Both the position numbers and the translations under genes were made by a program. A stretch of DNA of 64,000 nt from an uncultured Gammaproteobacteria bacterium (GTDB lineage: Bacteria > Patescibacteriota > Patescibacteriia > UBA9934 > CAZDDW01): contig CAZDDW010000003.1 in the NCBI GenBank assembly GCA_964504365.1, forward strand, positions 8,031-72,030, written 5' to 3'. Below, one piece after another: positions 31,803 through 59,473 of the stretch. The notes beneath the pieces were generated by a model. The model was not told where the DNA came from and searched no databases. It saw only the letters and a list, made by a program, of their open reading frames with translations. Position 1 is the stretch's first letter, and each line of letters begins with the position of its first letter.

Positions 31803-32145
31803 ACATAAATATTCATATCATAAAAAAGAAGAAGCGTCGACCCGACACATCTTCTGGACCAGCTATGCTGGCCTGCCATCCGAAGCTTTAGCGAAGGATG
31901 GCGCTCCAGCCCGGCTGGGCTGCAATGGCTCTGTATCTATTACGGATATACCTTGCCAGGTTACGCACTGATCAGCCGCGAAGCCAATGAGAACGCTCTG
32001 ACAAGACGCGAACCGGTTGGACCTTGCTAAAAAGCTTGATCCGAATGTTTGAAAATTTGACCCATAGCAGTTACCAACCGTCTGAAGCCTTTATATTATA
32101 CCATTTTTTTGCTGTCTTTTGCGCTTTTCCGTATAAGTACGTATA

Positions 32146-32166
32146 AGAAAAAGAGGACAAGCTGTC
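32146..32166 (-). terminator. terminator of the 32169 gene
   Basis: agaggacaagctgtcctct hairpin followed by a T-run on the minus strand. Confidence 0.5.
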
Positions 32167-32168
32167 CT

Positions 32169-32945
32169 CTATTGATCCACACGTTTTTCCACAGCTACAG
32201 TGGAAAAGTCAAAGCCAAAAACATGGGCCATGAAGAGCTGAAGCAGACCAGAGGCTTCAGGCGAAGGCTTAAGACCGTCATGGATTCGTTGCAGTGCATC
32301 GCGATCCTCTACGTACAAAGCCTTGTAGTAGGCCAAACGCTCTTTAAAGCTGTCTTCATCCAACTCAGCGTGGAACTGAGTGGCATAGATTGGCTTATCT
32401 GGAAAAGCAAAAGCCTGGACCAGTGAAGCTTCGCTGCGGGCCAAAACAACTGCCCCATCAGGCACCCTAGTAATGAAATCCTTATGCCCTTGCTGGGTAT
32501 TAAAACTACCGGGCAGCTGGGAGAAGATCGGATCCACTTGGCCCTCTTGGGTCAAGGAAACTGTGTAGCTTCCCATTTCCTGATCTTCTGGACGGTACTC
32601 GACTCGACCACCAAGTGCTTCAGCTAAAATCTGAGCACCAAAACAAATACCAAAAGTTGGCATGTTCTGTGTGGCTGCAGCACGAACCACCTCAAGCAAT
32701 TCTTGCCAATGTGGCAGGTCACCCTTGGACACAGCGAAAGATCCGCAGCCAGGTAACAAGAGAAGGTCATGACCATCAAGATCACTGACCCGAGGTGCCG
32801 TGGTCAGAGTATCAACTATCGTCAACTGATCTTCAGGAAGACCGCTGATTCGTTTTAGACATTCTAGTTCTGGACCTTTTGTGTCCGCTTCTCGGAATTG
32901 GTAGATGAGCACTTTCAGCTCCTTTGGTTGTTTTAAGGATTTCAT
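32169..32945 (-). CDS. class I glutamine amidotransferase-like protein (active-type, peptidase C26-like); paralogue of the 31062 gene
   Basis: GICFGAQILAEALGG with the nucleophile Cys, and QFHAELDE; same layout as the 31062 gene but with visibly higher GC. Confidence 0.6.
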   Translation of the reverse strand: MKSLKQPKELKVLIYQFREADTKGPELECLKRISGLPEDQLTIVDTLTTAPRVSDLDGHDLLLLPGCGSFAVSKGDLPHWQELLEVVRAAATQNMPTFGICFGAQILAEALGGRVEYRPEDQEMGSYTVSLTQEGQVDPIFSQLPGSFNTQQGHKDFITRVPDGAVVLARSEASLVQAFAFPDKPIYATQFHAELDEDSFKERLAYYKALYVEDRDALQRIHDGLKPSPEASGLLQLFMAHVFGFDFSTVAVEKRVDQ

Positions 32946-33042
32946 GTTTTCATGTTTTAATTATTTTCTCTTTTCTTTCATGGCCTCTGTTGAGACCAGG
33001 AAAGAGAAGAGCTGCGCGCTTGCATTGCGCGCAGCGTAGAAG

Positions 33043-34383
33043 TTAGAGAGGCAGGAACACTCGACTGCGTCGTGTCTCGATCCGATGCAATCGATCGTGG
33101 TAGCGGTGACGAACACCCTCAGCCTGATCACGATTGGCACCCACAAAGAACAGAGTGGCCTTGCCTGAACCGCGCCAGCAGCCCGGATTACCAGGAACGA
33201 TTCCAGGACGATCCGTACCGTCATAGAGCATCCCATCGACCCGATGATGAATCAGGTCTTCGTGGCCCATACCCTTAGGTATTTCAGTGTTCTCCATAAC
33301 CACACTGCAACTGCCACCGAAACGCGGAGCAACCTGATCAGCGAACGAGCAGACATACTTGGCCGCAGTACCGCGACCATTGATCTCGATCACGTAGACA
33401 AAGACCATTCCGGCGAAACGGATGACCAACAGGTCGATCCCAATAGTCCGAACCATTTCCTGGTCTGGTTGACCGCCACGACCAACACCCCGTCGAACAG
33501 CTTCGTTGCAAAACGGAATGATTGCTCGCATGATCGCCTGGTAGACTTGTACATCGACCAAGAACTGACCGACCGAGACAATATTGCCCTTGTGGGCATT
33601 GCCTTCGGTGATCTGCTGCGTTAGTTTGAGCAGTTTCCAACCGCCCAAACCAACAGCCACCTGGGCGCTGATCTCAGTCATATCGAACATGTCAGCCGGA
33701 TAAGCCGCCTCGATCACCAGTTGCTTGTGGCCATGCTCGGCCAAGAACTGAGCCACCTCAGCAGGATCCGTTCCTGGACCAACGAGCAAGTTGCTTGCTC
33801 CCCCATCAGCACCTGGGTCCTTGAGCATGACCGAATCAGTCTCCAGAACTTCGGCCGCCTCAGCCAAAACTTGTTGACGCAAGCGATCGAAATCGCCTAG
33901 ATTGCGAAACATGCTCCGCCAGGCCGTGAAGTGACCAGCTGCACCAGGCAAGAGTCGAGCACTGAGCTTGTGATCGAACAGTTCTGCCAGGTTTGGCTCG
34001 ATCGCCGCAGTATCACGGAAGCGCAGACCAAGCATCTGGCGAACCAAGAAGCTCAGCCGCGGGGTGAACAAACTCAACGGCCTTCCCTGCGCAACAGATC
34101 GTTGCACCTGTTGCAGCTCATCAGCGTAGCGCAGCAATCCCCGGGTCAGGTCACCACCAGGAACGACCACTAGCTGGTCAGCCCCAAGCTCGATCTGACG
34201 CATGTAGGCAAAAGTATCTTCGATATCCAGACGCGTCCCCTGCGTATCGGCACCAGTCACAGTCATGCCTGGGCAGACCAGGCTCCGGCTGGCGTAGTTA
34301 GCCAACCCACCGATATCAATCCCGCGACTCCGAAACGGAGTCATGTCGTCTACGTTCGTCTGCAGCCGCGTGAATGCGTCCAC
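33043..34383 (-). CDS. GC-rich putative ATP-grasp family ligase
   Basis: VMLKDPGADGGASNLL resembles the ATP-grasp glycine-rich loop (compare glutathione synthetase VKPLDGMGGASI), and VFVYVIEINGRG resembles the E-x-N motif. Likely GTG start at VDAFTRLQ with ribosome-binding site aaagagggg. Confidence 0.4.
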   Translation of the reverse strand: MDAFTRLQTNVDDMTPFRSRGIDIGGLANYASRSLVCPGMTVTGADTQGTRLDIEDTFAYMRQIELGADQLVVVPGGDLTRGLLRYADELQQVQRSVAQGRPLSLFTPRLSFLVRQMLGLRFRDTAAIEPNLAELFDHKLSARLLPGAAGHFTAWRSMFRNLGDFDRLRQQVLAEAAEVLETDSVMLKDPGADGGASNLLVGPGTDPAEVAQFLAEHGHKQLVIEAAYPADMFDMTEISAQVAVGLGGWKLLKLTQQITEGNAHKGNIVSVGQFLVDVQVYQAIMRAIIPFCNEAVRRGVGRGGQPDQEMVRTIGIDLLVIRFAGMVFVYVIEINGRGTAAKYVCSFADQVAPRFGGSCSVVMENTEIPKGMGHEDLIHHRVDGMLYDGTDRPGIVPGNPGCWRGSGKATLFFVGANRDQAEGVRHRYHDRLHRIETRRSRVFLPL

Positions 34384-34634
34384 TGGTTTCCCCTCTTTGG
34401 TTAAAATGTGCACAAAACAAAACGACCTCACTCATGAGGCCGTCCCTGTTTACCAGATTATGTCTAAATAATCAAGAACGGCCTTATGAAATAAAGAGGT
34501 CAATAATAAGTCCTACGAACATGTCGCGGTCAACTTTTCCAATTTGTGTCGCAGGATAATTCATATCGAATGTAAATCTATCATACCTTATTTTTCCGGT
34601 CAAATTAAGGGGGGCTGTGGATAGTCGACCAGGC

Positions 34635-34663
34635 CTTGATTCTTTTCGCTCAATCAACTATAA
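34635..34663 (+). promoter_or_regulatory. sigma70 promoter of ndk (TTGATT, 17 nt, TATAAT)
   Basis: TTGATT cttttcgctcaatcaac TATAAT lies about 30 nt upstream of the ndk start. Confidence 0.5.
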
Positions 34664-34691
34664 TATGGCCAAAATTAACCTAAGAATAATT

Positions 34692-35285
34692 ATGCCAGAA
34701 AATCCAAAACAGGAAAAAACTTTTCTGATGGTAAAGCCAGACGGTGTCAAACGCGGTATCATCGGTGACATTATCACTCGCTGTGAGCAGCGTAACCTGA
34801 AAGTCGTAGCAATCAAAATGGAACTTGCCACTCACGAGCAAATGGATAATCATTATCCAAAAGATCCAGCCTGGGTTACTCGAGTTGGTGAAAAAACCTT
34901 AAAGACCTATCACAAGGCTGGTTGGGATGCTAAGAATGAACTTGGTACTGATGACCCAGCAGAGATTGGTGCCATGGTCCGTAAATGGTTGATTGAATTC
35001 ATGACTTCAGCACCTGTAGTCAAGATGGTCATCCAAGGTGTGCGTTCTGTAGATATGGTCCGCAAGATCGCCGGATCAACCATGCCAGCTGATGCAGACA
35101 TGGGAACTATCCGCGGCGACTATTCAGTTGACACCGCATTAATCGCCAATGCTGAAAAACGTCCAGTACGAAACATTGTTCATGCTTCAGAGACACCAGA
35201 AGAAGCAGCACATGAGATTGAACATTGGTTTGATGCTGGCGAGATCTGTGAGTATAGTAGAAGCGAAGAAGAAATGCAGTTCTAG
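34692..35285 (+). CDS. ndk: nucleoside diphosphate kinase with an internal insertion
   Basis: TFLMVKPDGVKRGIIGDIITRCEQ and the NIVHASE catalytic region; about 50 aa longer than a canonical Ndk. Confidence 0.8.
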   Translation: MPENPKQEKTFLMVKPDGVKRGIIGDIITRCEQRNLKVVAIKMELATHEQMDNHYPKDPAWVTRVGEKTLKTYHKAGWDAKNELGTDDPAEIGAMVRKWLIEFMTSAPVVKMVIQGVRSVDMVRKIAGSTMPADADMGTIRGDYSVDTALIANAEKRPVRNIVHASETPEEAAHEIEHWFDAGEICEYSRSEEEMQF

Positions 35286-37660
35286 AAAATTAGCGGCTTG
35301 GATCGGATAACTTGATCCAAACCATCAGAAATCAAAAGTACATCAGCATCCAGGTCTGTTCGCCAGATCTGGATGTTTTGATCCTGTAGCCGCTGCAACA
35401 CAACCGGATGTGGGTGGCCGTAGGAGTTGTCTTCGCCAACAGTAATCACCGCGGTTTCGATATCAAGTAATTCTAAAAACCGGACTGAACTCGAGCTGAT
35501 ACTGCCGTGGTGCGGGACTTTGAGTACATCAATCTGATTTGAAACATTGCGCAGCACTTCGGCTTCTTGCTCTTGATACATGTCGCCGGTGAACAGAATC
35601 ACAGTCTCACCATGGGCTAACTCAATCACGATCGAGGTCTCGTTGACTTCGTCGATATTTTCATTTTCAAATGATTGATCAGGGAACACAGCTCGCAAAC
35701 CATAACCAAGATCCATTGAATCATCCACGATCGTCACCTGCCCCACCCTTTCTTCAAACGCGTCTAAATAACTTGACCGATAATTCACTCCGGTCATGAC
35801 CACCTGATCGATCTGGTAACGATCCAAAACTTCGATCAAACCAGAGATGTGATCTGAGTGCGGGTGTGTTGAAATAATCATGTCAATCGAACGATCCCAA
35901 AACGGCATAACTGCGCCCAGTTTCGATAACACAGCTTCTCCTGGACCGCCATCAATCAAAATCTGTTTGTTGTCAGGAGTTTGAATAAACACGGCGTCAC
36001 CTTGTCCGACATCAAAAAACCATACGCGGAGCTGTTTGTTTGTATTCAATGTTGAGCCAGTACTATCGAATGTTTGAAAACCAAAACATGCTACGAATAA
36101 AATTGTAAATGATGTGATCGCTAACCCCCAACGTCTACTTCCGTGAAAATGTTCTCGTCGCAATCTGGTTTTGCGATACAACCAGAACAACCAAGCGATC
36201 AGCGCTATCGCGATCACGCTGGCTACGACTTCACTCCAGGGAATCGACACGCTGGCGATCGAAAGTGAACCAAACCAGCGGATAATGTAAAGCATGGTTG
36301 ACAAGCATGTCCAGGCAGCAATTGAAACAAACGCGGCCAGCTTAGTCGAGATAAATCCAACAACGATCGCAATCGCACCAAAGCCCATGGCATACGGAAC
36401 CAGTGGCAGAACCAAGAAATTAACTAATGGCGATACGATCGAGAGCTGTCCAAACTGCAAAATGAGAATTGGCAAAGTCATGATCGTTGCTGCCAAAGTT
36501 GAAACGATCGCCTCGCGAAAACCTCCGGTCGCAGGAATGAATCGGAACTTGTGCTCGATCCGAGGAACAATCATAACCAGCCCGATCGTGGCTAAAAACG
36601 ATAACTGAAAACCAACGTCGTCGAGCAATAATCTTGGATTCACAAAAAGCATCGCCACCGCAGTCAGAGCCAGAATATTTCGCAACGCAGAATCATTTCG
36701 CGCTCGACCCAAAGACCGGCCAAAGACAACAATCAAGCCCATCACTCCAGCACGAGTCACGGCTGGATCAAACCCGGCAACAACAACGTAAATCCCAATC
36801 GCTCCAGCCACCAGAGCCAACGCTGTACGCCGGCGAAAGAGCAGAGCAACGAGGGCCAAGAATAAAAAGCGAGAAAAAATACTAACGTTATATCCAGACG
36901 CGGCTAGGATATGCGAAGTGCCAGTGTCAACAAAATCTTGTCGCAGATCAGAAGAGATTGAGCCCTTGCCCCCAAAAAGCAGGCCGGACAAAAAAGTCGA
37001 ATGTGGTTCAGAAAATATCTGTTCAGTTTTGTTGTATATCACTTGTTTAAAATCGAACAATGTTGATCGAAGTGTTGTCACCTGATTTGATCGAACATCA
37101 ACTGCATCCGGCCACCAACACACAGCAAGCACGCCGCGCGTACGCAAATATCGATCATAAGCAAACCCATCAAATGGTTCTGGTACTTCAAGCTCACATC
37201 GAAAAGCCACCTCGTCCCCGAAACTTATCGTTGGATACTTTGGCATCCAAACCATGACCTTGCCCAAAGCATGCTCATCAGCGACCAGAACATGATCAAT
37301 CGTCACCTGCTGCGACTGAGCTTTTTCAACCACCTCATCAGAAACAACACCTTCGATGCGCACTTCGCGATTCAAAGTATCAGAGACTAGAAACGCATCA
37401 ACTGGTAAAAAAACCTGTGAAAAGCGCCAAAGTCCAAGAAGAAAGAAAAAAAGAAATAAAAATACAAAACACATGGCACGACGTGCGACGTGCGACACGC
37501 TCACCACTACCCCAACCAAACACCCCAACATTCCACCAACCAACCACCCATTCCATAAAGGTTCACCAACTAACCCACCAACAAAAATCCCGAGCAAAAA
37601 CCCGAGCAACACCACGAACAAAGATCGTGAAGGAGATTTAACGATTGATTCCAACTCCAT
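35282..37660 (-). CDS. comEC: DNA internalization competence protein ComEC/Rec2 with a C-terminal metallo-beta-lactamase domain
   Basis: Polytopic transmembrane region followed by ISTHPHSDHISGL. Confidence 0.8.
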   Translation of the reverse strand: MELESIVKSPSRSLFVVLLGFLLGIFVGGLVGEPLWNGWLVGGMLGCLVGVVVSVSHVARRAMCFVFLFLFFFLLGLWRFSQVFLPVDAFLVSDTLNREVRIEGVVSDEVVEKAQSQQVTIDHVLVADEHALGKVMVWMPKYPTISFGDEVAFRCELEVPEPFDGFAYDRYLRTRGVLAVCWWPDAVDVRSNQVTTLRSTLFDFKQVIYNKTEQIFSEPHSTFLSGLLFGGKGSISSDLRQDFVDTGTSHILAASGYNVSIFSRFLFLALVALLFRRRTALALVAGAIGIYVVVAGFDPAVTRAGVMGLIVVFGRSLGRARNDSALRNILALTAVAMLFVNPRLLLDDVGFQLSFLATIGLVMIVPRIEHKFRFIPATGGFREAIVSTLAATIMTLPILILQFGQLSIVSPLVNFLVLPLVPYAMGFGAIAIVVGFISTKLAAFVSIAAWTCLSTMLYIIRWFGSLSIASVSIPWSEVVASVIAIALIAWLFWLYRKTRLRREHFHGSRRWGLAITSFTILFVACFGFQTFDSTGSTLNTNKQLRVWFFDVGQGDAVFIQTPDNKQILIDGGPGEAVLSKLGAVMPFWDRSIDMIISTHPHSDHISGLIEVLDRYQIDQVVMTGVNYRSSYLDAFEERVGQVTIVDDSMDLGYGLRAVFPDQSFENENIDEVNETSIVIELAHGETVILFTGDMYQEQEAEVLRNVSNQIDVLKVPHHGSISSSSVRFLELLDIETAVITVGEDNSYGHPHPVVLQRLQDQNIQIWRTDLDADVLLISDGLDQVIRSKPLIF

Positions 37661-38954: not shown

Positions 38955-39008
38955 AGGTCGACACCTTACCAAAAAACTGGCCTTTACGCCAGATGATTTA
39001 TCAAGATA

Positions 39009-39218
39009 GCCGGCCACTTCTCTTGTCGTCAGAAATAAAGAGCCGAGGGGTTTTGAATTGTGGAACGATCGGAGGCCGGACTATCAAATCCACTCTATAA
39101 ATAAGTATCATTTTAATGTTCCGGCCGACGCCGAGCGAGGCAATGATCATTCTCGACCCAACCACCCTGCGGGCCGAGCGCTTCCACAATCAAAACCCTG
39201 AGGCTCCCGTGGCCGACC
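39009..39218. mobile_element. MITE-like element copy 2
   Basis: Same terminal sequences as copy 1 (CCGGCCACTTCTCTTGTCGTCAGAAATAAAGAGCCGAGGGGTTTTGAATTGTGGAACGATCGGAGGCCGG ... CTGAGGCTCCCGTGGCCGACC). Sits in the 3' untranslated region of the MFS gene, upstream of ugd. Confidence 0.5.
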
Positions 39219-39222
39219 TAGA

Positions 39223-40401: not shown

Positions 40402-40403
40402 AT

Positions 40404-43310
40404 TTAGATAACAAAGTTAATCAATCGTCCTGGGACGTAAACTGTTTTCTTGATTTTATTGTCTGCAACAAACTTCTGAACATTCTCTTCTGCCAAAGCC
40501 AGCTTCTCTGCCTCCTTCTGGTCTAGATCTGGAGCTACCATTATTGTACCACGTAACTTTCCATTAACCTGAATCGGCAACTCAATCGTTTCGTCCTTAG
40601 CCAACTTTGGATCAAACTCTGGCCAAGCCTCAAACGTGATCGACTTCTTGTTTCCTAACTGCTGCCAGATCTCCTCAGTCACATGTGGAGCAAACGGTGC
40701 AAACACGGTCAGAAACTTAGCAAGGCTTTCTTTTGTAATCGAACCAGTGTCTTGTATCTTGTTAACCAGAATCATCATCTGCGATACGGCTGTGTTATAT
40801 TTCATTTCTTCGATATCAGAAGTTACCTTCTTGATTGTCTTGTGCAGCTCGCGAGTCACATCTTCGTCTTCTTTCTTTGCAACCATGTCCTGCAAATTCC
40901 AAACCTTTTCCAGGAACCTACGCACACCAACTACACCAGTCGTACTCCAAGGAATTGCTTCGCTAAAAGGACCCATGAACATTAAATACACTCGCAGCGT
41001 ATCAGCCCCATACTGCTCAACAATCTCATCCGGATTAATCACATTGCCAAACGACTTAGACATCTTGCGCCCGTCCTCAGCCAGAATCATCCCATGTGAA
41101 GTGCGCTTTTGGTATGGTTCGCTAGTTGGCACATGCCCTTGGTCGTGCAGGAACTTATTCCAGAAACGAGAGTAGAGCAAGTGCAGCGTGGTGTGCTCCA
41201 TTCCGCCGTTGTACCAATCAACTGGCATCCAATTCTTCAACTTATCTTCAGCCGCAAACACCTTATCGTTCTTTGGATCGATATAGCGCAGGAAATACCA
41301 ACTAGACCCAGCCCAGTTTGGCATCACATCAGTCTCACGCCTGGCAGGACCACCACATTCAGGACAAGTCGTGTTCACCCAATCGTCAACATTAGCCAAC
41401 GGTGATTCACCAGACTCAGTTGGTTCGAACTTCTTTACCTCAGGTAATTCAACTGGAAGCTGTTCATCTTTAACCGGCACCCAACCACCGTTTCGTTTCG
41501 AACCTTCATTATCCCAATCCGACACCGGCTTCTTATAACACTCTTCACAATGAACCAAAGGAATCGGCTCACCCCAATATCGTTGTCGAGAAAAAACCCA
41601 ATCACGTAACTTGTAATTAACTGCGGCCTTGCCCTTACCTTCTTTTTCCAACCACTGATTCATCTTCTTAATCGCCTCTGGCGTGTGCAGACCATCAAGA
41701 AAATCCGAATTAATACATTCGCCTTCACCAACAAAAGCCTGACCTTGATCTGAGTCAAGCTCCGACTTCCAACACCGCAGTTCAGAACAAGCCATACTCT
41801 CTTCTGTAATCTCACAACGATCAACCCAGCGTATTTCATGGGCTGCTTTTTCCTTATCCTCAACATCCACTTGCTTTTCACTTTTCAGATCAAACACGAT
41901 CGCGGTACTGTAAGCAACGCGATTCTCTTTTTTATGAGCAGCATAATATTCTGAACGAATCTCCTGACTCATAAACTTTCGAAATTCCAAATCAACATAT
42001 CCTGTTTCTTCTTCAATCTCACGTTTAGCAGCATCGATCAAATCCTCTCCATCATCAACCCCACCTAGAACAAAAGTTGTCCAAGGGTGTTTTTTCCAAT
42101 CAAGACACAAATATTTGTCAGTCTTTGGATTATGGACAATAGCCATTATCATTTTTCGAGTCACAATCTTCTTGCCTTTTTGTGGTGGATTATTTTTATC
42201 ACATACGCAAGGTGCTACCACTTGTTGAATCAGTAGACCAAACTTTATAGCAAACTCAAAGTCACGCTCATCATGCGCAGGAACAGCCATGATCGCACCA
42301 GTACCGTAGCCCATCAAAACATAATCAGCGATCCAGATTGGAATCTTTTCATTGTTCACTGGATTAGTCGCATACGCGCCAGTAAACACTCCTGTTTTTT
42401 CTTTTGATACATCACCGCGCTCAATATCCGTTTTCGCGGCAGCCTCTTTCTTATACTTGGTCACGGCCTTCATCTGCTCCTTGGTCGTGATCTGCTCTAC
42501 TAACTCATGCTCAGGCGCCAAGACCATATATGTAGCTCCAAACAAAGTATCCGGACGAGTTGTAAAGACTTTCAAATACGGTGTCACTCCGCCGGACTTT
42601 TGATCAACCTCAAACTCAACAATCGCACCTTCAGATCGGCCGATCCAGTTAGCCTGCTGCGCTTTGATCTTGTCCAAGAAATCAACAGTATCCAAATCAT
42701 CTAACAACTTGTCGGCATAGCGAGTGATCTCCAACATCCATTGCTCACGATCCCGCTTCTCAACTTCCCCACCACAACGCTCACACTTTCCATCAACCAC
42801 TTCCTCATTAGCCAAACCAATCTTGCAAGACAAACACCAATTAATCGGCATCTTGGATTTGTAAGCCAAACCAGCCTTGAACAACTGCAAGAAAATCCAT
42901 TGTGTCCATTTGTAATAATTCGGATCTGTCGTGTCCACCTCACGCGACCAATCAAAAGAAAAACCAATAGACTTCAGCTGACGCTTAAAGGTTGCGATGT
43001 TCTGCTGAGTCGCCTCACGCGGATGAGTCCCAGTCTTGATCGCGTAGTTCTCGGTCGGCAAACCAAAAGCGTCCCAACCAATTGGATACAAAACATTATG
43101 CCCCTCAGCTCGTCGCTTACGCGCCACAATATCCAGCGCGGTGTAAGATCGCGGATGTCCAACGTGCAAACCGGCTCCTGACGGATAAGGAAACTCAACT
43201 AAACAAAAATACTTCGGCTTGTCCGAATTATCCTGCGCTTCGTATAATTTTTTCTCCTCCCAAAACTTTTGCCATTTAGGCTCGATTTCTAAGTGGTTGT
43301 ACCGATCCAT
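40404..43310 (-). CDS. leuS: leucyl-tRNA synthetase carrying an inserted Nudix hydrolase domain
   Basis: HVGH, TRPDT editing motif and KMSKS are present. About 165 extra residues lie between AHDERDFEFA and NSDFLDG, containing a perfect Nudix box GGVDDGEDLIDAAKREIEEETGY. Confidence 0.9.
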   Translation of the reverse strand: MDRYNHLEIEPKWQKFWEEKKLYEAQDNSDKPKYFCLVEFPYPSGAGLHVGHPRSYTALDIVARKRRAEGHNVLYPIGWDAFGLPTENYAIKTGTHPREATQQNIATFKRQLKSIGFSFDWSREVDTTDPNYYKWTQWIFLQLFKAGLAYKSKMPINWCLSCKIGLANEEVVDGKCERCGGEVEKRDREQWMLEITRYADKLLDDLDTVDFLDKIKAQQANWIGRSEGAIVEFEVDQKSGGVTPYLKVFTTRPDTLFGATYMVLAPEHELVEQITTKEQMKAVTKYKKEAAAKTDIERGDVSKEKTGVFTGAYATNPVNNEKIPIWIADYVLMGYGTGAIMAVPAHDERDFEFAIKFGLLIQQVVAPCVCDKNNPPQKGKKIVTRKMIMAIVHNPKTDKYLCLDWKKHPWTTFVLGGVDDGEDLIDAAKREIEEETGYVDLEFRKFMSQEIRSEYYAAHKKENRVAYSTAIVFDLKSEKQVDVEDKEKAAHEIRWVDRCEITEESMACSELRCWKSELDSDQGQAFVGEGECINSDFLDGLHTPEAIKKMNQWLEKEGKGKAAVNYKLRDWVFSRQRYWGEPIPLVHCEECYKKPVSDWDNEGSKRNGGWVPVKDEQLPVELPEVKKFEPTESGESPLANVDDWVNTTCPECGGPARRETDVMPNWAGSSWYFLRYIDPKNDKVFAAEDKLKNWMPVDWYNGGMEHTTLHLLYSRFWNKFLHDQGHVPTSEPYQKRTSHGMILAEDGRKMSKSFGNVINPDEIVEQYGADTLRVYLMFMGPFSEAIPWSTTGVVGVRRFLEKVWNLQDMVAKKEDEDVTRELHKTIKKVTSDIEEMKYNTAVSQMMILVNKIQDTGSITKESLAKFLTVFAPFAPHVTEEIWQQLGNKKSITFEAWPEFDPKLAKDETIELPIQVNGKLRGTIMVAPDLDQKEAEKLALAEENVQKFVADNKIKKTVYVPGRLINFVI
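41715..42210 (-). other. Nudix (MutT-like) domain embedded in leuS, about residues 368..532
   Basis: Nudix box G-x5-E-x7-REUxEExGU matched exactly, with flanking strands of the Nudix fold (MAIVHN, AIVFDL, HEIRWV). Confidence 0.6.
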
Positions 43311-43317
43311 AAGTTTT

Positions 43318-43357
43318 CTGGTTATCTGGTTATCTGGTTATCTGGTTATCTGGTTAA
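43318..43357. repeat. tandem octamer repeat (GTTATCTG, 4.5 copies) followed by three AGACAAC repeats, upstream of leuS
   Basis: ctggttatctggttatctggttatctggttatctggtta, then tagacaactagataaccagacaacaagacaac. Confidence 0.7.
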
Positions 43358-47838: not shown

Positions 47839-47848
47839 ATAATTATAT

Positions 47849-47958: not shown

Positions 47959-47963
47959 TCTAC

Positions 47964-49994: not shown

Positions 49995-50024
49995 AGTGCG
50001 CCTATTCTACTAAATTCCGCTTAA

Positions 50025-50440: not shown

Positions 50441-50499
50441 CAAAGATTAAGATATCATGATTGTTGATTTACGTCAACAATGTGCTAGGATATGAGCAT

Positions 50500-51156: not shown

Positions 51157-51172
51157 GACCCGAGAAGTGAGA

Positions 51173-53453: not shown

Positions 53454-53533
53454 TTTTAAGGTAGAGAGTAGAAGGTAGAAAGTAGAAAGAATCAGTCTCT
53501 CTCTACTATCTACTCTCTACTTTCTACATATTT

Positions 53534-54337
53534 ATGGAATCCACAATACTTATCTTCGGTGACGTCATTGGACGTATTGGTCGGGAAGCCCTTGCAAAGG
53601 CGCTTCCCGATTTGCGTTCTCAATACCAACCAGACCTGGTCCTAGCCAACGGCGAAAACCTGGCTCATGGTTTTGGAATCACTCCAAAGACCGTTCGCTT
53701 CATGTTGAATGCTGGAGTCGACGTGCTCACCAGCGGAAACCATATCTGGGCCAACCCGGCTTACAAGGATGTCTTTTCTGATCCAGAACTAAACCGCCGC
53801 GTAGTTCGTCCGCTGAACGATCCACACACCGAGGGTATCGGATATACAATTCATGAAAACGATCACGGCCGCTTTTTGATCATCTGCCTAAACGGCCGCG
53901 TCTTTATCGACGAATCCTATGGCATATTTTTCGATCCAATCGACCGCGTTCTCACAGATCTAAAAGACGAACACTTTGACGCTGTGCTGGTTGACTTCCA
54001 TGCCGAAGCCACTTCAGAAAAAAACGTGCTTGGTTTGTATCTAGACGGCCGCGTCTCTTGCCTTTACGGAACCCACACTCATGTACCAACTGCTGACGAG
54101 CGAGTCCTGCCCAAAGGCACAGCTTACATCTCCGATGTTGGAATGGTTGGTGCTCACAACCAAGCCTTGGGTGGTGAATACGAACCGATTCTGGAAGGAA
54201 TGAAGCAGGGCGGACTGGGCAAATACCATGTTCCAGAATCCGACCCAGTGGAAATCAATGCTGTCTTGGTCAAGACAAAAGACGGTCAAGCCACCTCAAT
54301 CGAACGGATTCAAAAAATACTTGCCAAGTTTCCATAA
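53534..54337 (+). CDS. ymdB: YmdB-like metallophosphoesterase (2',3'-cyclic-nucleotide phosphodiesterase family)
   Basis: ILIFGDVIGRIGREAL, GNH and GTHTHV metal-ligand motifs; conserved rny-ymdB synteny. Confidence 0.8.
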   Translation: MESTILIFGDVIGRIGREALAKALPDLRSQYQPDLVLANGENLAHGFGITPKTVRFMLNAGVDVLTSGNHIWANPAYKDVFSDPELNRRVVRPLNDPHTEGIGYTIHENDHGRFLIICLNGRVFIDESYGIFFDPIDRVLTDLKDEHFDAVLVDFHAEATSEKNVLGLYLDGRVSCLYGTHTHVPTADERVLPKGTAYISDVGMVGAHNQALGGEYEPILEGMKQGGLGKYHVPESDPVEINAVLVKTKDGQATSIERIQKILAKFP

Positions 54338-54388
54338 TTCCGCTATACTGACACGTGAATTCATAAACAAACTTTTAAAACCAAGCAT

Positions 54389-54682
54389 ATGAACAAAGCA
54401 GAACTTGCAGCACGTGTTGCCGACCGAGTCGGTGTTTCTAAAAAACAAGGTGAGGAATTTGTTATAGCCTTCCAAGAAATTGTAACCAAAACTTTGGTCG
54501 AGGGCGGTGAGGTAACCATTGCCGGATTCGGTACATTCTCAGCTCGAACTCGTAAAGGCCGTATCGGTGTGAACCCACAGAATCCAACAGAAAAGATCCA
54601 GATTCCACCAGTAGTTGTTCCAAAATTCAAAGCTGGAAAAGCATTAAAGGATTCATTGAAAGGAAAGCGAGAAGTACACTAG
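54389..54682 (+). CDS. hup: DNA-binding protein HU
   Basis: MNKAELAARVADRVGVSKKQGEEFV ... GFGTFSARTRKGR. Confidence 0.85.
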   Translation: MNKAELAARVADRVGVSKKQGEEFVIAFQEIVTKTLVEGGEVTIAGFGTFSARTRKGRIGVNPQNPTEKIQIPPVVVPKFKAGKALKDSLKGKREVH

Positions 54683-54729
54683 GAAATAATAAAAAGCGGA
54701 AGCATTTGCTCCCGCTTTTTTGATTCTAA

Positions 54730-55275
54730 CTAATCCAGTTCCCGCAGCGTTTCCATTATTTCCTCCCAATACACTTCTTGATTAACAAATGGTGAGAAAA
54801 TAATTAATCCATCTTCACGCTCTTGAATGTAATTTGTTTTAGTTACCTCACCCATTGCTGTTGTATTCTCTAATGCAGTCAAAATAATACCACCTTGGTT
54901 GATCTGCTCTTCTAGAACAATCTGCCCAGTTCCCTCAACACCACCATACCCACTAGCTGTGACTTCTTTAAACTGATCCAAAGTCATCCCTTGAGCAAAG
55001 AAAGCGTACATGAGTTGTTCTGCGCTCTCAGCTACAGTAGGATCATAAATTGAGAACAGCAAGCGCATCTCTGCACTCAGATAATAGATGTTGTCGTCGG
55101 CTTCTTTGTTGTTGAATGTATACTTGCCTGGATATTGGAAAGCAAAATTAAATTCTTCACTTTCAAAAATTTCCCAAGTCGGCTGAACAGTTGGCAGGTT
55201 CTTTTTTGGACCACCACAACCAAGTCCAGTAGTGACAAGCAAGGTTAATACTAATACTGAAAGTATATAGCGCAT
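54730..55275 (-). CDS. hypothetical lipoprotein
   Basis: Signal peptide followed by the lipobox LGCGG. Confidence 0.55.
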   Translation of the reverse strand: MRYILSVLVLTLLVTTGLGCGGPKKNLPTVQPTWEIFESEEFNFAFQYPGKYTFNNKEADDNIYYLSAEMRLLFSIYDPTVAESAEQLMYAFFAQGMTLDQFKEVTASGYGGVEGTGQIVLEEQINQGGIILTALENTTAMGEVTKTNYIQEREDGLIIFSPFVNQEVYWEEIMETLRELD

Positions 55276-55276
55276 A

Positions 55277-56551
55277 CTATTTCTTGTTTACAAAACTTTT
55301 TACTTCTTTAACGATCTGGTCGATCTTAACTAAACTGAATTCTTTGTTGGTTCGTTCTTTCCACTCAACAGAATCCTCAGCCAAGGTCTTTTCTGATACA
55401 ACTAAACGCAATGGAATTCCGATCAAGTCAGCATCACCAAATTTCTCACCAGGTGACATGCCTTCACGATCATCCCACAATACTTCGATTCCAGATTTTT
55501 CTAGATCATTATGTAAAGCAGACGCAACATCGTTGATTCGTGATACAACGGCCTCGTCTTTAGAACTCAGAGAAATAATCTCAACTGCATATGGAGCAAT
55601 CGACTTTGGCCAGATCATTCCTCGATCATCATGCGATACCTCAACCACAGCACCCATTACACGTGAAGGGCCGATTCCGTAAGAACCCATAACAATCTGT
55701 TGACTCTCCCCTTTTTCATCCTTCATGCTCATCTTGTTAGCGTCTGTGAACTTGGTTCCTAGCGGGAAAATATTTCCAACCTCGATTGACTTCATCTCTT
55801 CTACTTTACCACCACAATCCTTTGGACAAGCATCGCCATCTTTACCATCAAAGATCTCCTTGTTCCAAGCGTAGTCACAGCCTTCACAGAAGTAAATTGT
55901 GTCCTCACCAGATTCTGTTGGGGTTTGGAACTCATGCGAGTCCTTTGAAAAGTCGCCACCTGAAGCTTCGGTGTAAATGGCCCGGATTCCAATGCGATCA
56001 AAAACTTTTCGATAAGCATCAGCGGATTTCAAATAAAACTCAGCACGATCTTCTTCTGACAAATGAAAACTGTAAAAGTCCTTCATTGAGAACTCGCGTC
56101 CACGCAACAACCCAGACTTAGCCCGAGCCTCGTTGCGGAACTTGTCCTGAACCTGATACAAGAAGACTGGAAAGTCCTTATACGAATTCACGTACTGTTT
56201 AACCAGCGGCGTAATCACGTCCTCATGAGTCAAACCAAGACAATAGTCCTTGTCACCATGACCTTTCAGTTTGAACATGACGTCGATAGTATCCCAGCGA
56301 CCAGTTGTGGTCCAAGGTTCTTTTGGTTGAAGTGCTGGCAAATAAACCTCTTGTCCACCAATGGCTTCCATTTCCTCGCGAACAATATCTTGAATCTTTT
56401 TCAAGACCCGCAAACCAAGCGGCAGGTACGAGAAAATCCCAGCAGCGAGTTGATTTATAAATCCAGCCTGAAGCAAGAGCTGAGCATTGGCTGAATCAGC
56501 ATCAGCCGGCTTCATCTTATTGGTCTTACCAAATAGTTTTGAATATTTCAT
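55277..56551 (-). CDS. proS: prolyl-tRNA synthetase, short form without the INS editing domain
   Basis: Class II motifs with a zinc-binding C-terminal domain (FCEGCDYAWN..CPKDCGG); 424 aa. Confidence 0.85.
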   Translation of the reverse strand: MKYSKLFGKTNKMKPADADSANAQLLLQAGFINQLAAGIFSYLPLGLRVLKKIQDIVREEMEAIGGQEVYLPALQPKEPWTTTGRWDTIDVMFKLKGHGDKDYCLGLTHEDVITPLVKQYVNSYKDFPVFLYQVQDKFRNEARAKSGLLRGREFSMKDFYSFHLSEEDRAEFYLKSADAYRKVFDRIGIRAIYTEASGGDFSKDSHEFQTPTESGEDTIYFCEGCDYAWNKEIFDGKDGDACPKDCGGKVEEMKSIEVGNIFPLGTKFTDANKMSMKDEKGESQQIVMGSYGIGPSRVMGAVVEVSHDDRGMIWPKSIAPYAVEIISLSSKDEAVVSRINDVASALHNDLEKSGIEVLWDDREGMSPGEKFGDADLIGIPLRLVVSEKTLAEDSVEWKERTNKEFSLVKIDQIVKEVKSFVNKK

Positions 56552-56642
56552 ACGCCGCTTATGGTACCAAGATAGGCTAATTTATTCAAGGCTTGACCTT
56601 GCGCTGTCCATGTGCTTAAATAGCCGCACAAGGGAGAACATC

Positions 56643-56936
56643 ATGTTCCAAAAACTCGCAAAAAATACCTGGTTGCTCCTGCTGGCCATTGCTGGACTGG
56701 CAACTATCCTCGTCATCAAGATCGAAAATCCTTTCGTGTTGGCGATAGGCTCTTATTACCTGTTCTATGGCGTGATCCATTTGATGGGCAAGACCTTGCC
56801 CCTGTTCACTGACAAACACCGCAGATCGAAAGCTGCTCCGATCAAGCTTGTCGCCAGCCCGCTCGCAACGCTTTTCCTGTTCGCTACCGGAGCTTGCCTG
56901 ATCTACTTCTACCACTTCCCACTCTCGGCTTCGTAG
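56643..56936 (+). CDS. small membrane protein (97 aa, 2-3 transmembrane helices)
   Basis: Ribosome-binding site gggag, hydrophobic helices, and hairpin terminator gcgcc-tcact-ggcgc followed by seven T's immediately after. Confidence 0.45.
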   Translation: MFQKLAKNTWLLLLAIAGLATILVIKIENPFVLAIGSYYLFYGVIHLMGKTLPLFTDKHRRSKAAPIKLVASPLATLFLFATGACLIYFYHFPLSAS

Positions 56937-56942
56937 CCACCT

Positions 56943-57025
56943 CGCGCCTCACTGGCGCTTTTTTTGTTGGCTAAACAGACCGCCGACCAATAAAAAACCG
57001 GCCCTGGAAAGGGTCGGTGCTGTGT
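56943..57025. terminator. convergent terminator module A: plus-strand hairpin plus T7, then a minus-strand hairpin (ccgaccc-tttcca-gggccgg plus T6)
   Basis: Homologous to module B at 58048..58150 (shared GCGCC.ACTGGCGCTTTTTTTGTTGGC...AGACCGC.GACCAA...AAAAAA). Confidence 0.55.
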
Positions 57026-57045
57026 GAAGTAAGGAACGATGGTAA

Positions 57046-57711
57046 CTACTCAGAGTCGCTTTTCTGGGCCTGTCTCATCATGTACATGGCCAAGCCCTCA
57101 CGTTCGAAGGCCTGCAGGATCTTCTCAGCGTGGTCTAGAGCTGTACGTCGTTTGTCGACCCACATCCTAACCAGACAGAAAACCTGGTACGCAATCTGTT
57201 GCCCGTCTTCCTCGGTCTTGGCACAGATCTCAGACAACGGAGTCTCTTTGACAGTCACCTTGACCGCACGGTCATAGCCATGATCACACACGAAGTCGAC
57301 TCTGACCAAGACCCAGCGAGCCGTCCGCGTCAGCCCCCAAAAATGATGACACCCTGTCTCCTGGTCATCAGCGATAACCGTACCTAGGTTGCGGCTCCGT
57401 GACACAAAGAGGCCCTTGCTCTTCAGGCTCGAGACTCCATCAACCGAAGACACCAACTCGGGCTCATCATCCTCAATCTTGTGCTGGGACGAAGAGCTTC
57501 CGCCCCCCTTCTCGCCTTTGAGACACCTGACACCGCCCAGGCTCCAGAGCTTGATGTTTCTCTCCAGGTCTGGAGCAAGGACCCTGGCTCTTGCCTCCAG
57601 GATGACGGCCCAGTCCTCCTCGGTTACAGGTTCACGACGGGCCAGCTGTCTTTGTCCAACTGACAATGCTTCCAAATACTCCTCATAGGAGTCGAATCCT
57701 GGCACGGGCAT
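57046..57711 (-). CDS. GC-rich hypothetical protein (222 aa)
   Basis: Start at MPVPGFDSYEEYLE with a perfect ribosome-binding site aaaggagg and a terminator downstream; no recognisable motif. Confidence 0.45.
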   Translation of the reverse strand: MPVPGFDSYEEYLEALSVGQRQLARREPVTEEDWAVILEARARVLAPDLERNIKLWSLGGVRCLKGEKGGGSSSSQHKIEDDEPELVSSVDGVSSLKSKGLFVSRSRNLGTVIADDQETGCHHFWGLTRTARWVLVRVDFVCDHGYDRAVKVTVKETPLSEICAKTEEDGQQIAYQVFCLVRMWVDKRRTALDHAEKILQAFEREGLAMYMMRQAQKSDSE

Positions 57712-57866
57712 ACCCGGCCTCCTTTCGTCACCCAAAGGGCAAACCCAATGGTGATATTAACTTACTACAATATATAAATCCCATCAAATGTATCATCAGC
57801 ACCTGGTGCAACTCGGCGCTTTTTTCTTTGTCTGATTTCATGCTATGCTAAATACAAGGAGGATTA

Positions 57867-58034
57867 ATGGGAGAGAAATCGAATCTTTGGACAGAATTCA
57901 AGGAATGGCTTGGAGGAGACGCTTTGTTCTTTCTCCGCCTCGCCTTCATCGTTCTTTGCCTCTGGGCCCTCGTACCGTTCGTCTTCGCATTCTTGGAAAC
58001 ACTCTTTGGCGGAAGCACTTCGCAATCCTGAGAC
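57867..58034 (+). CDS. small membrane protein (55 aa: MGEKSNLWTEFKEWLGGDALFFLRLAFIVLCLWALVPFVFAFLETLFGGSTSQS)
   Basis: Translated by hand; ribosome-binding site aaggagg 4-5 nt before the ATG, one transmembrane helix, followed directly by terminator module B. Not in the ORF track because it is shorter than 60 aa. Confidence 0.45.
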
Positions 58035-58047
58035 AATTCCTTCCGCC

Positions 58048-58150
58048 TTGCGCCACCTGGCGCTTTTTTTGTTGGCCGAATAGACCGCTGACCAACAACC
58101 CGCCCGAAGCTTTAGCGAAGGCGGGTCATTCAATAAAAAATCGGCCAGGA
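58048..58150. terminator. terminator module B (gcgcc-acct-ggcgc plus T7), containing an inserted CGAAGCTTTAGCGAAGG-loop hairpin and a minus-strand hairpin
   Basis: Duplicate of module A, with an extra hairpin cccgcCCGAAGCTTTAGCGAAGGcgggt at 58100..58128. Confidence 0.55.
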
Positions 58151-58380
58151 CGACCGATGTGTCTGTGTCGGGCAATCCGACAAACAAGGCAGATGAGATC
58201 AGGAATGTCATGAGAAAGAACAGGAGCAGGACCAGACAAAGAACAACAGCCCAAGCAGACTTTCTGGTCACAGCAAGTGCAGTAAACAATCCGGACAGGA
58301 AAGAGCTAGCCGCAATCATTAGAAACAAGATCATCATTTCCTCCAAAACCAACCTTACACCAACCCGCTAGAAAAGAAAA

Positions 58381-58405
58381 ATCCCTCGTTGCCGAGGGGC
58401 GATGA
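58381..58405 (-). terminator. terminator of the 58434 gene
   Basis: ccctcg-ttgc-cgaggg hairpin followed by ATTTTTCTTTT on the minus strand. Confidence 0.5.
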
Positions 58406-58433
58406 GGGACAGGTCCAATCAAGGGCGATCGGA

Positions 58434-58640
58434 CTAGATGGGCTTGTACTGCCAGCCCTGCCGTTCGCAGAACTCGGCCACCGAGACAGAGCCCTCGCGG
58501 AGTCGTTGGTGCAGTTCGTCGGCCTCGTCAGCCGGGATCACGGGCGGGCGAGTCGGATTGCCCTGGTCGTCGAAGAAACGGATCGGATGTGTGCGTGCGT
58601 TGGATGCTGGACCGGCTTCCCAGTCGGGTTTGGCCATACT
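58434..58640 (-). CDS. GC-rich small hypothetical protein (about 68 aa)
   Basis: ATG preceded by ribosome-binding site aggagg with 5 nt spacing; sequence MAKPDWEAGPASNARTHPIRFFDDQGNPTRPPV...; terminator downstream. Confidence 0.4.
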   Translation of the reverse strand, partial: SMAKPDWEAGPASNARTHPIRFFDDQGNPTRPPVIPADEADELHQRLREGSVSVAEFCERQGWQYKPI

Positions 58641-58717
58641 CACCTCCTAATTAGACCATATCATTATTTTACCAAAAATAAAAATCCGACCAGGTGGTCG
58701 GAATGAGTACGTGCGGT

Positions 58718-59149
58718 CTAGGCGCTTGCAGGTACGGCAGCGGGTGGGACCAGGCGGAAGATGCGTGCAGCGAAGATCGAGCAACTGTGAGCAAAGACCC
58801 TTGCTACACCACTCTTCTGGCTGACCGCGACCAGTGGGCTACCTGCCCTATAGCTGATCCAGGGTCCGGGCTTCATCATCTTCGCCGGAATCTCGTGCTC
58901 GGCACCTTCGGCGTAGGCGGGCAGGAGCTGATCATCTTGCTCGGCCATCCTGCGTACGAGCACGGTTCGCCAGGAACGATCGTCAGACCACACCTGGAGC
59001 TGCTCACCGATCGTTCCCTCTCGCGGGAATTCGATGCTGTCCGTCTGGACTGGAGCTTCTCCGGTTCGATCCTCGAAATATCGTCTGTCGTTTTCGCGTT
59101 CTCCCGTGTCTCCCATGAGAACGAACACTCCGACCGGCTGACTACTCAT
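58718..59149 (-). CDS. GC-rich hypothetical protein (about 144 aa)
   Basis: Start at MSSQPVGVFVLMGDTGE with ribosome-binding site aaggagg. Confidence 0.45.
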   Translation of the reverse strand: MSSQPVGVFVLMGDTGERENDRRYFEDRTGEAPVQTDSIEFPREGTIGEQLQVWSDDRSWRTVLVRRMAEQDDQLLPAYAEGAEHEIPAKMMKPGPWISYRAGSPLVAVSQKSGVARVFAHSCSIFAARIFRLVPPAAVPASA

Positions 59150-59229
59150 GAGGCCTCCTTGCTGTCGTAGCTCACGACTAAAAGATCTTGCCACAAAAAC
59201 CTGATACTGTCAATTCCTGGTATTTCAGG

Positions 59230-59258
59230 TTGACATTTATCAAGAAATATAGTATATT
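59230..59258 (+). promoter_or_regulatory. sigma70 promoter upstream of tRNA-Lys (TTGACA, 17 nt, TATATT)
   Basis: TTGACA tttatcaagaaatatag TATATT lies about 15 nt before the tRNA 5' end. Confidence 0.5.
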
Positions 59259-59273
59259 TGCGACCACAAGTAT

Positions 59274-59350
59274 GCCCCGTTAGCTCAGCCCGGTAGAGCA
59301 GTTGGCTCTTAACCAAACGGTCGCAGGTTCGAGTCCTGCACGGGGCACCA
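59274..59350 (+). tRNA. tRNA-Lys (anticodon CUU), CCA encoded
   Basis: Hand-folded cloverleaf: acceptor GCCCCGT/ACGGGGC, D arm GCTC/GAGC, anticodon loop CTCTTAA, T arm GCAGG-TTCGAGT-CCTGC, discriminator A, then CCA. Confidence 0.8.
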
Positions 59351-59473
59351 GCCGTCGCTTCATCAGATCATTTATTGATGGCGCGACGGCTGCCCTTCGA
59401 AGCCTCGGCGAAGAAGGGCCGTGAATAAGATTGTGATGAAGCTATGGCTGGCAGGCCATGCTAATCACAGTAT

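Follow-up and report, generated by a model that had tools for sequence, protein, structure and literature searches.

The question raised by the 64,000-nt stretch of contig CAZDDW010000003.1 analysed here (positions 8,031 to 72,030, referred to as the window) is what purpose is served by a short motif that recurs three times within it, each time inside a hairpin with different arms. The original prediction had seen in it a conserved loop presented on co-varying stems, as expected for a protein-recognition or RNA-RNA kissing element, and had added that one copy might be mobile in its own right. From our point of view, the hairpins rather represent a widespread family of very small GC-rich palindromic insertion elements and not gene-control signals, a reading to which we assign about an even chance. 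The host, whose EF-G is 90–91% identical to that of named Uhrbacteria, is a bacterium of the Patescibacteria (candidate phyla radiation, CPR) near Candidatus Uhrbacteria, and matches to the organism come from metagenomes only.

All three hairpin sequences are present in the window. The degenerate 16-mer CGAAGCYTYRGCGAAG has three matches, all on the + strand, where 0.17 are expected and where none of 100 dinucleotide shuffles reached three. A covariance model built from 121 family members and then run over the window, as the original prediction had proposed, returned exactly these three sites, the next-best hit scoring 11.7 bits:

31874–31903, + strand: copy 1; 46.7 bits, RNA fold of −16.9 kcal/mol, z −2.7
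31872–31875, + strand: head CCTG of the 30-nt unit of copy 1, followed by the arm CCATC, the core CGAAGCTTTAGCGAAG (31881–31896) and the arm GATGG
58098–58126, + strand: copy 2; 34.6 bits, arms ACCCGCC/GGCGGGU, core at 58105–58120 with one extra C
59392–59419, + strand: copy 3; 28.3 bits, arms GCCCUUC/GAAGGGC, core CGAAGCCTCGGCGAAG (59398–59413), tetraloop CUCG

The third variant thus does lie between two tRNA genes as predicted, but about 13 nt to the left of the position first given for it (59405–59432). Likewise, an identical stretch is shared by copies 1 and 2, of 18 nt (CCGAAGCTTTAGCGAAGG) and not 17, but it is not a loop. In the folds predicted for RNA as well as for DNA, an outer stem of 7–8 bp is followed by GAA facing GAA, by two G-C pairs and by an apical tetraloop (UUUA or CUCG in the window), so that the conserved part is mostly structured, consisting of a GAA·GAA internal loop with a GC/GC clamp, and the real apical loop is what varies. 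The internal loop is a symmetric 3x3 loop except in copy 2, where the additional C turns it into CGAA/GAA (4x3). The + strand hairpin predictions reach z-scores of −2.1 to −3.3, and none of the copies has a T-run of its own. Outside the core of 16–18 nt no similarity was found among the three window copies, and because there are just three of them, stem covariation cannot be judged inside the window.

A collection of species-representative genomes was scanned with the exact 16-nt core CGAAGCTTTAGCGAAG. The motif, far from being confined to the window, was found in genomes of about 12 phyla, at no fewer than 120 loci and mostly with different but complementary GC-rich arms (4–9 bp of complementary flank in most of the listed matches). 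By record title, the matches listed comprise:

Bacteroidota: about 35, plus 3 Balneolaceae
CPR: about 22
Alphaproteobacteria: about 22
other Pseudomonadota: about 10
Verrucomicrobiota/Kiritimatiellia: 8
Omnitrophota: 4
Planctomycetota, Nitrospirota and Bdellovibrionota: 3 each
Desulfobacterota: 2
others: few

Cultured isolates and one complete genome are included, and neither Bacillota, Actinomycetota, Cyanobacteria nor Archaea are among the matches listed. Carriers in culture include Bradyrhizobium spp., Mesorhizobium sp. SOD10, Sphingorhabdus sp. EL138, Akkermansia muciniphila, Geomonas diazotrophica and Pseudobdellovibrio HCB154. The CTCG-looped copy 3 has exact counterparts in other genomes, for instance at locus L102. 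In IMG/VR, 63 matching stretches were found, a mix of true members and of chance or other conserved sequences. As the core served as the search key, its invariance among the seed loci is given by construction; the extra copies inside the seed loci are a less biased sample of its variation than the seeds themselves.

The family has a defined architecture. Its consensus is SYTTG-YCCKC-[core]-GMGGR, with an information content of zero outside positions −10 to +21, and the unit consists of a 3–4 nt head (YTTG or CCTG), an arm of 5–6 nt, a core C-G(A/T)A-GC-[tetraloop or extra stem]-GC-G(A/T)A-G and a second arm complementary to the first, the hairpin measuring 26–33 nt and typically 30 nt. In an ungapped alignment of 120 distinct copies, tested against 500 shuffles and against 3′ partners slid out of register, 87.6% of the arm cells are paired (73.8% in shuffles) and 168 of them are double changes, compared to 58.7 ± 6.7 in shuffles (reached in 0 of 500) and 24–52 in the slid controls; the covariation score is 0.386 as opposed to 0.04–0.10 with slid partners. 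The compensatory stem changes that had been proposed from two copies are hence borne out by the family. The arms also differ between copies in single loci. The internal loop, on the other hand, stays within few combinations (GAA/GAA 90, GTA/GAA 9, GAA/GTA 5, GTA/GTA 4) with the GC clamps kept, and a fully paired GAA/TTC form is not among the recurrent ones. A GTAG is seen just inside the core of the GTA variants. The tetraloop may be TTTA, CTTG, CTCG, TTCA, CTTA or ATCA, and the apical stem can be extended, again with covariation (GCTC/GAGC, GCGC/GCGC, GCCC/GGGC). By analogy with known motifs, the facing GWA triplets (W, A or T) on one strand probably form stacked sheared G·A, W·W and A·G pairs; the opposite strand of the hairpin has a pyrimidine mismatch. 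Since the arms drift with compensation while the non-Watson-Crick core remains constant whatever the apical length, the two GWA triplets would be read across from one another, with the single strand folded, rather than as two sites in duplex DNA.

The behaviour of the copies within genomes is that of a dispersed repeat. A genome with one copy has many, close together: about 40 further copies were found in the 838 kb of seed loci and none in 653 kb of unselected metagenome loci, a control set that was anchored on QueH and consists of relatives at no more than 56% identity. Orientation is random with respect to the neighbouring open reading frames (ORFs; >H> 19, <H< 17, >H< 15, <H> 12), within ORFs (14 copies on the same strand, 20 on the opposite one) and relative to GC skew (52:55, i.e. 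no replication-strand bias). While 81% of the copies lie outside long open frames, taken as frames of at least 600 nt, only 28% of random positions do so. A T-run follows on the 3′ side of 7 of 119 copies and, on the other strand, of 2 of 119.

About 18 copies are nevertheless found in frame in long ORFs of conserved proteins, among them IleRS, the NAD-dependent DNA ligase LigA, Tgt, alanine racemase, a dihydrolipoamide-dehydrogenase-like protein, a sulfatase and a histidine kinase. A unit of 30 nt equals ten codons, and all four stop-free frames are used, which yields peptides of the type (P/S)(S/A)FAKAS(E/A)G (e.g. SFAKASE), EALAKA, RSFSEGG and SLKLRR. In the IleRS of a Saccharibacteria metagenome-assembled genome (MAG), PSFAKASEGK occupies a surface loop that is 7–8 residues longer than in the closest homologues; as this loop is variable in length in the alignment, the insert amounts to 8–10 residues and its exact length cannot be fixed. 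At three loci, a 30-nt unit (CTTG, a 5-nt arm, the 16-nt core and a 5-nt arm) is nested inside the tetraloop of another copy (TTT^A, CTT^G), and its excision restores a canonical TTTA or CTTG loop. These in-frame and nested copies, like the absence of a copy from relatives described below, fit the earlier suggestion that the element is mobile in its own right.

Another family of small hairpins, GCCCTTCGACAGGCTCAGGGC, is likewise found in frame near the IleRS N-terminus of a Saccharibacteria genome (L120:2200–2230) and of the homologues P0002, P0005, P0007 and P0118, where it encodes peptides that differ by homologue (LRQAQG, PSTGSG, SGQGKS). In reverse complement it is similar to the present element (CCTTCG..AAGCT..GG..ACAAG), so that the ~30-nt hairpin insertions of CPR proteins may form a superfamily. 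Larger conserved mosaic repeats of Alphaproteobacteria (L038, L081, L084; L049, L050, L053, L097) contain the hairpin as one of their modules, for example CCTCTCCCCGC..GCGGGGAGAGG-TCG-[hairpin]-CGGGTGAGGGG, and in a Bradyrhizobium block a second copy in opposite orientation lies about 170 nt from a fluoride riboswitch. The protein families that recur near copies are generic ones (ABC ATPases, response regulators, four-helix-bundle proteins). Genes resembling the four-helix-bundle '23S rRNA intervening sequence protein' occur near copies in four loci of Bacteroidota or unclassified bacteria (L013, L078, L117, L119), probably by coincidence.

A preferred location of the family are the 3′ ends of stable RNA genes. 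Of 122 copies, 32 are situated within 400 nt of a tRNA or transfer-messenger RNA (tmRNA) gene, and five seeds flank or sit within ssrA, a single-copy gene. In Bacteroidota, where the CCA is not encoded, a gene-oriented copy begins 0–7 nt past the 3′ end (...ACC|TTCG|hairpin), and the order tRNA, TCCG, hairpin, T-run is conserved in two Bacteroidales families. In Proteobacteria, Nitrospirota, Verrucomicrobiota, Planctomycetota and one Doudnabacteria MAG, the copy has the opposite orientation and the encoded CCA provides the first bases of its stem (CCAGCC-TTCGC..GCTTCG-GCTGG); in 6–7 of 11 such cases CAGG and the arm once more (CCAGCC) follow, and then GCGAAGGCTG and a second, gene-oriented copy. 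The trailer of tRNA-Lys in the window is similar in that its first hairpin opens with the CCAGCC of the tRNA; this arm is repeated inverted twice (59376–59392 and 59434–59451), and the 10-mer TGGCAGGCCA found there also occurs after CCA-overlapping tRNA 3′ hairpins in L014, L056, L086 and L121. At L102:7380–7625, a tandem 61-nt unit combines the final 12 nt of a tRNA-Arg gene with a hairpin copy, the arms being identical in the repeats and the core varying (GTA or GAA; CTCG or CTTG loop).

Against this background, the surroundings of the three window copies can be described by the following features:

31834–31848, − strand: terminator-like hairpin with T-run, on this strand just downstream of copy 1
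56944–57002, no strand assigned: bidirectional terminator module paralogous to that around copy 2 (88% identity over 42 nt), without hairpin
58050–58072, + strand: intrinsic terminator left of copy 2, GCGCCACCTGGCGC followed by T7, ending a small + strand ORF
58131–58158, − strand: intrinsic terminator right of copy 2, ending a convergent − strand gene
59274–59350, + strand: tRNA-Lys(CTT), with a strong promoter-like site at 59230–59258 (11/12 match)
59348–59392, + strand: trailer hairpin of tRNA-Lys, its 5′ arm starting with the tRNA's own CCA (CCAGCCGTCGCTTCATCA ... TGATGGCGCGACGGCTG)
59449–59458, + strand: the 10-mer TGGCAGGCCA
59474–59550, + strand: tRNA-Arg(TCG); a canonical intrinsic terminator comes next (59549–59580)

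Copy 1 sits in the 366-nt spacer of two GATase paralogues, both on the − strand, and is antisense to each, so that any mRNA would carry the UUC/UUC version. Copy 2 occupies the short gap of two convergent intrinsic terminators and lies beyond both. As had been suspected, it looks inserted into a duplicated module: the paralogous one, 1.1 kb away, is shorter by ~33–38 nt, the hairpin included, and provides an empty-site comparison. Copy 3 is located in the 123-nt spacer of the tRNA-Lys(CTT)-tRNA-Arg(TCG) operon and its transcript carries the GAA version. The transcriptional setting differs from copy to copy, which makes one cis-regulatory role unlikely, and the copies may well be passengers of a 3′ untranslated or intergenic spacer, a convergent-terminator gap and a tRNA operon spacer, respectively, a description that we hold with evenly divided confidence.

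Small palindromes lie on either side of copy 1 (CCAGC-TAT-GCTGG at 31861–31873 and CCAGCC-C-GGCTGG at 31906–31918); their arms match the CCAGCC arm subfamily of tRNA 3′ ends elsewhere, and the palindromes may be related to the element as decayed or core-less forms. The duplicated terminator modules (56944–57002 and 58050–58158) separate convergent small hypothetical genes, and a 162-aa ORF at 57864–58352 (− strand), which runs across both terminators and copy 2, is probably no real gene as listed.

Two relatives, with ProRS 77% and 72% identical, have retained the L32-NusB-RNase III ... ProRS neighbourhood and both tRNA genes, but in both of them tRNA-Lys and tRNA-Arg are each directly followed by a canonical terminator and no hairpin is present. 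Related genomes hence have the same tRNAs without it, and copy 3 is therefore not a conserved tRNA-processing element. The two tRNA genes are arranged in tandem in the window (59274–59550) and divergently in L277:5642–5868 and L278:4107–4335, which implies that an inversion or rearrangement accompanied the arrival of the hairpin-filled spacer. No family members were found in about 80 kb from relatives with 89–95% EF-G identity. At EF-G-anchored loci of close relatives, the site of copy 1 was either beyond reach or not conserved, and the QueH-anchored metagenome search for empty sites yielded just relatives at no more than 56% identity.

How else could the hairpins be explained? It can be imagined that they are a structural motif, as RNA or as extruded DNA, that benefits the host as a site for a conserved housekeeping protein and is kept by selection, spread being secondary. 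Candidates would be a tRNA/tmRNA-maturing nuclease, a block to exonucleases or, in line with what has been suggested for repetitive extragenic palindromic (REP) elements, a nucleoid or topoisomerase site. This explanation, the main rival, which we regard as unlikely and which is not mutually exclusive with insertion, draws on a core that is far better conserved than the arms, both across phyla and at apparently orthologous Bradyrhizobium sites, on the precise placement at tRNA and tmRNA 3′ ends (0–7 nt away in Bacteroidota, or overlapping the encoded CCA), on the share of copies near such genes including the five ssrA seeds, on the tRNA-TCCG-hairpin-T-run order kept in two Bacteroidales families, and on copy 3, transcribed in the GAA sense within a tRNA operon. 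However, it is at odds with the random orientation relative to transcription, with ORF copies in frame in both orientations, with the position of copy 2 outside both terminators, with related Uhrbacteria that process the same tRNAs without the hairpin, and with the 653 kb of other metagenome loci in which no copy occurs, and it lacks a known partner protein. Ordinary intrinsic terminators or 3′ stabilising hairpins that share a stable core by chance are improbable: some copies, mainly in Bacteroidota and next to tRNAs, are indeed followed by T-runs, and copies 1 and 2 adjoin terminators, but the low T-run counts argue against intrinsic terminators (7/119, with 2/119 on the other strand), no window copy has a T-run of its own, copies lie in frame in ORFs, and convergence would not be expected to yield an exact identity of 16 nt across phyla.

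Less probable still is a cis-acting RNA that presents a conserved loop to a protein or to a kissing RNA, the reading of the original prediction. The + strand fold predictions, the covarying arms and the self-complementary AAGCUU of the commonest variant speak for it, but the random orientation relative to flanking genes argues against a strand-specific cis-acting RNA signal and largely refutes it. Moreover, the conserved bases are paired or stacked in the internal loop and the apical loop is variable (TTTA, CTTG, CTCG, TTCA or longer stems), so that a kissing interaction has no basis; copy 1 is antisense to both neighbours, copy 2 lies outside transcription units and ORF copies occur on both strands. 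That a protein recognises the internal loop is still plausible. Rfam at gathering thresholds matched only the tRNAs in the window and, at E ≤ 10, gave nothing credible for the hairpins. Chance similarity, a fragment of a HindIII-site repeat or an assembly or adapter artefact could be suspected from three window copies of which two contain AAGCTT, but can practically be dismissed: the shuffle statistics exclude chance, copies with covarying arms are found at over 100 independent loci, cultured isolates and one complete genome among them, and the HindIII site is incidental, being missing from copy 3 and from many variants. Hardly conceivable, too, are guide-RNA-like units of a TIGR-Tas or CRISPR-type system, which are common in CPR. 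The CPR host, the variable 5–6 nt segments beside conserved motifs and tandem G·A pairs that recall box C/D RNAs (PMC12045711) are reminiscent of them, but TIGR units form tandem arrays of 5–15 with alternating edge and loop repeats and two non-covarying 9-nt spacers beside a Nop-domain gene (PMC12045711). The copies described here are dispersed singletons with complementary arms, which excludes a TIGR array, and no Nop or Tas gene is among the Pfam calls of the window genes.

What argues for an insertional element rather than a regulatory RNA is the orientation independence, the intergenic preference with in-frame survivors, the nesting and clustering, the patchy lineage-specific presence and the absence from the paralogous terminator module. 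Several observations nevertheless weigh against it. Copies of one genome have differing arms while the core is the same across phyla, a signature of selection on a recognised motif and not of recent copy-and-paste. Neither a target-site duplication or flanking direct repeat beyond chance at any offset (best 10 of 120) nor a general relationship between arm and flank at any offset was found in the family. The S-core-S′-CAGG-S arrangement (S, arm) recurs across phyla with an arm that takes in the CCA of the tRNA, for which a simple insertion of a fixed 30-nt unit gives no explanation; a duplication of 5–6 nt would fit these cases, but the family at large shows none. Within the 8-kb loci there is no recurrent neighbour family of transposase type, the Pfam-called genes of the 64-kb window include no transposase, and eight arm variants had no match in plasmid and cultured-phage collections. 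In strain-level contigs of the window organism, copies 1–3 are unchanged though adjacent bases vary, and no clean filled/empty pair was obtained from near-identical genomes. Taken together with the absence of copy 3 from relatives, the former means that the copies are fixed in the population and specific to the lineage.

In comparison to known elements, the proposed insertion element is of an established kind, with REPs, Rickettsia palindromic elements (RPEs) and organellar GC clusters as examples, and it is the conservation pattern that is unusual. REPs and bacterial interspersed mosaic elements (BIMEs) are mobilised by RAYT (TnpA-REP) transposases, form GTAG- and CGTC-tagged superfamilies and have been reported within tRNA synthetase and ligase genes (PMC3733652). 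Like a REP, which is a GC-rich imperfect palindrome of 20–40 nt with a short head, the element has 26–33 nt and is mainly extragenic, it is clustered, is found in either orientation, occasionally lies inside tRNA synthetase or DNA ligase ORFs and, in most copies, has no adjacent transposase. Unlike in REPs, the head is YTTG or CCTG (S-Y-T-T-G at positions −10 to −6) instead of GTAG or CGTC. Whereas REPs are high-copy, near-identical within a genome and specific to a species or genus, the element varies in its arms and shares a 12-nt core across ~12 phyla, and the conserved part is an internal purine-purine loop, not an arm. A REP family also goes with a genomic gene for a RAYT, a Y1 transposase, which often has REPs on either side. 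RPEs have 100–150 bp, are restricted to Rickettsia and are found in frame in protein genes as well as in stable RNA genes such as that of tmRNA. They resemble the element as palindromes that add a tolerated peptide in frame to proteins, and differ from it in that the latter has 30 nt and occurs in many phyla. Mitochondrial GC clusters are tiny GC-rich hairpins that, in genomes richer in AT, invade ORFs and RNA genes as well as intergenic DNA and encode no enzyme; they are organellar, have unrelated sequences and no known conserved GWA/GWA core. For fungal and sponge mitochondria, mobile GC clusters and hairpin elements are described (PMC2800124).

With respect to structure, the C-GAA-G opposite C-GAA-G of the element, or GUA opposite GAA, gives the same context as motifs with sheared G·A pairs, albeit as a structural analogy only. 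In the d(GCGAAGC) mini-hairpin, in 3x3 GAA/GAA RNA loops and in the GUA/GAA of loop E or the sarcin-ricin motif, stacked sheared purine pairs are unusually stable, in DNA and in RNA. The loop E-like combination is confined to the minority GTA/GAA variants (9 of ~110), the window copies being GAA/GAA, and the sarcin-ricin motif differs by its asymmetry (AGUA/GAA with a bulged G) and its GNRA loop. A kink-turn is excluded since it needs a 3-nt bulge, while the loop found here is flanked by G-C pairs and is a symmetric 3x3 one on either side of which these pairs lie (4x3 for copy 2). Integron attC sites and the ends of IS200/IS605 elements are recognised as folded single strands via structure, unpaired bases and strand asymmetry, with a variable terminal loop. 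The former have at least 57 nt and R″/R′ boxes (RYYYAAC/GTTRRRY), and the latter lie on either side of a transposase gene, with insertion next to a fixed tetra- or pentanucleotide, on its 3′ side. An attC site is excluded by a consensus without GTTRRRY and a length of 26–33 nt, and there is neither a flanked transposase gene nor a fixed-target signature as for IS200/IS605. A classic MITE (a miniature transposable element with terminal inverted repeats and a target-site duplication) and arms derived from the target are likewise ruled out, given the lack of a duplication or arm-flank signal, and arms of target origin are also at odds with the nested copies.

One strand, as single-stranded DNA or as RNA, is predicted to fold into a hairpin with two GWA triplets face to face, and we infer that this asymmetric internal loop and its G-C clamps are recognised by a trans-acting factor encoded away from the copies; our best guess, from the parallels to REP/RAYT, IS200/IS605 and attC/IntI, is a single-strand-specific transposase of the HUH/Y1 type. 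Such a factor would copy or insert the unit into non-essential DNA such as hairpin tips, tRNA and tmRNA ends, terminator gaps and tolerant loops of proteins. Going further, and more tentatively, the family might be an undescribed pan-bacterial class of ~30-nt mobile hairpins with a G(A/U)A·G(A/U)A loop that is read by a widespread single-strand-specific enzyme, the hairpins homing to tRNA and tmRNA 3′ ends, where they would rebuild the CCA in their own stem, and persisting in frame in essential proteins of streamlined CPR genomes as 10-residue peptides of the SFAKASE/EALAKA type. A literature search with the DNA/RNA sequence and the encoded peptides returned nothing relevant, and a search by keyword turned up just general papers on REPs and TIGR; the literature covered left subscription journals largely uncovered, so an earlier description is possible.

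Some further features of the window are recorded here. Directly upstream of a 968-aa − strand ORF ending at 43310, an 8-nt unit, GTTATCTG, forms about five tandem repeats (43313–43356). Between the genes of EF-Tu and EF-G there is a GC-rich island (21800–24040; 0.59 as compared to ~0.43 on either side) that contains two ORFs without Pfam match (405 and 267 aa in L001), and a PhdYeFM-like antitoxin is encoded close by; in relatives, this position of the str operon is taken by other genes. Lastly, QueH (60272–60829) has 185 aa in some strain-level contigs and 133–135 aa in others (L280 as opposed to L281 and L284), which suggests a start-site or frameshift difference between strains.

For the window alone, the outcome is modest, namely three passenger hairpins, and the interest lies in the wider family. 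Small palindromic repeats are normally lineage-specific, whereas here one core of 12–16 nt with a non-Watson-Crick loop spans CPR, Bacteroidota, Proteobacteria, Verrucomicrobiota, Planctomycetota, Nitrospirota and others, and a core common to so many phyla implies either a very widespread recognition machinery or an unusually effective horizontal spread. Because of these units, ORFs become spurious or extended and 'junk' peptides (SFAKASE, EALAKA, RSFSEGG) recur in protein databases. The units can also interrupt essential genes or add padding to them, and they sit exactly at the sites where tRNA and tmRNA 3′ ends are formed. Phylogenetic profiling of the element against gene content could reveal the enzyme that is responsible.

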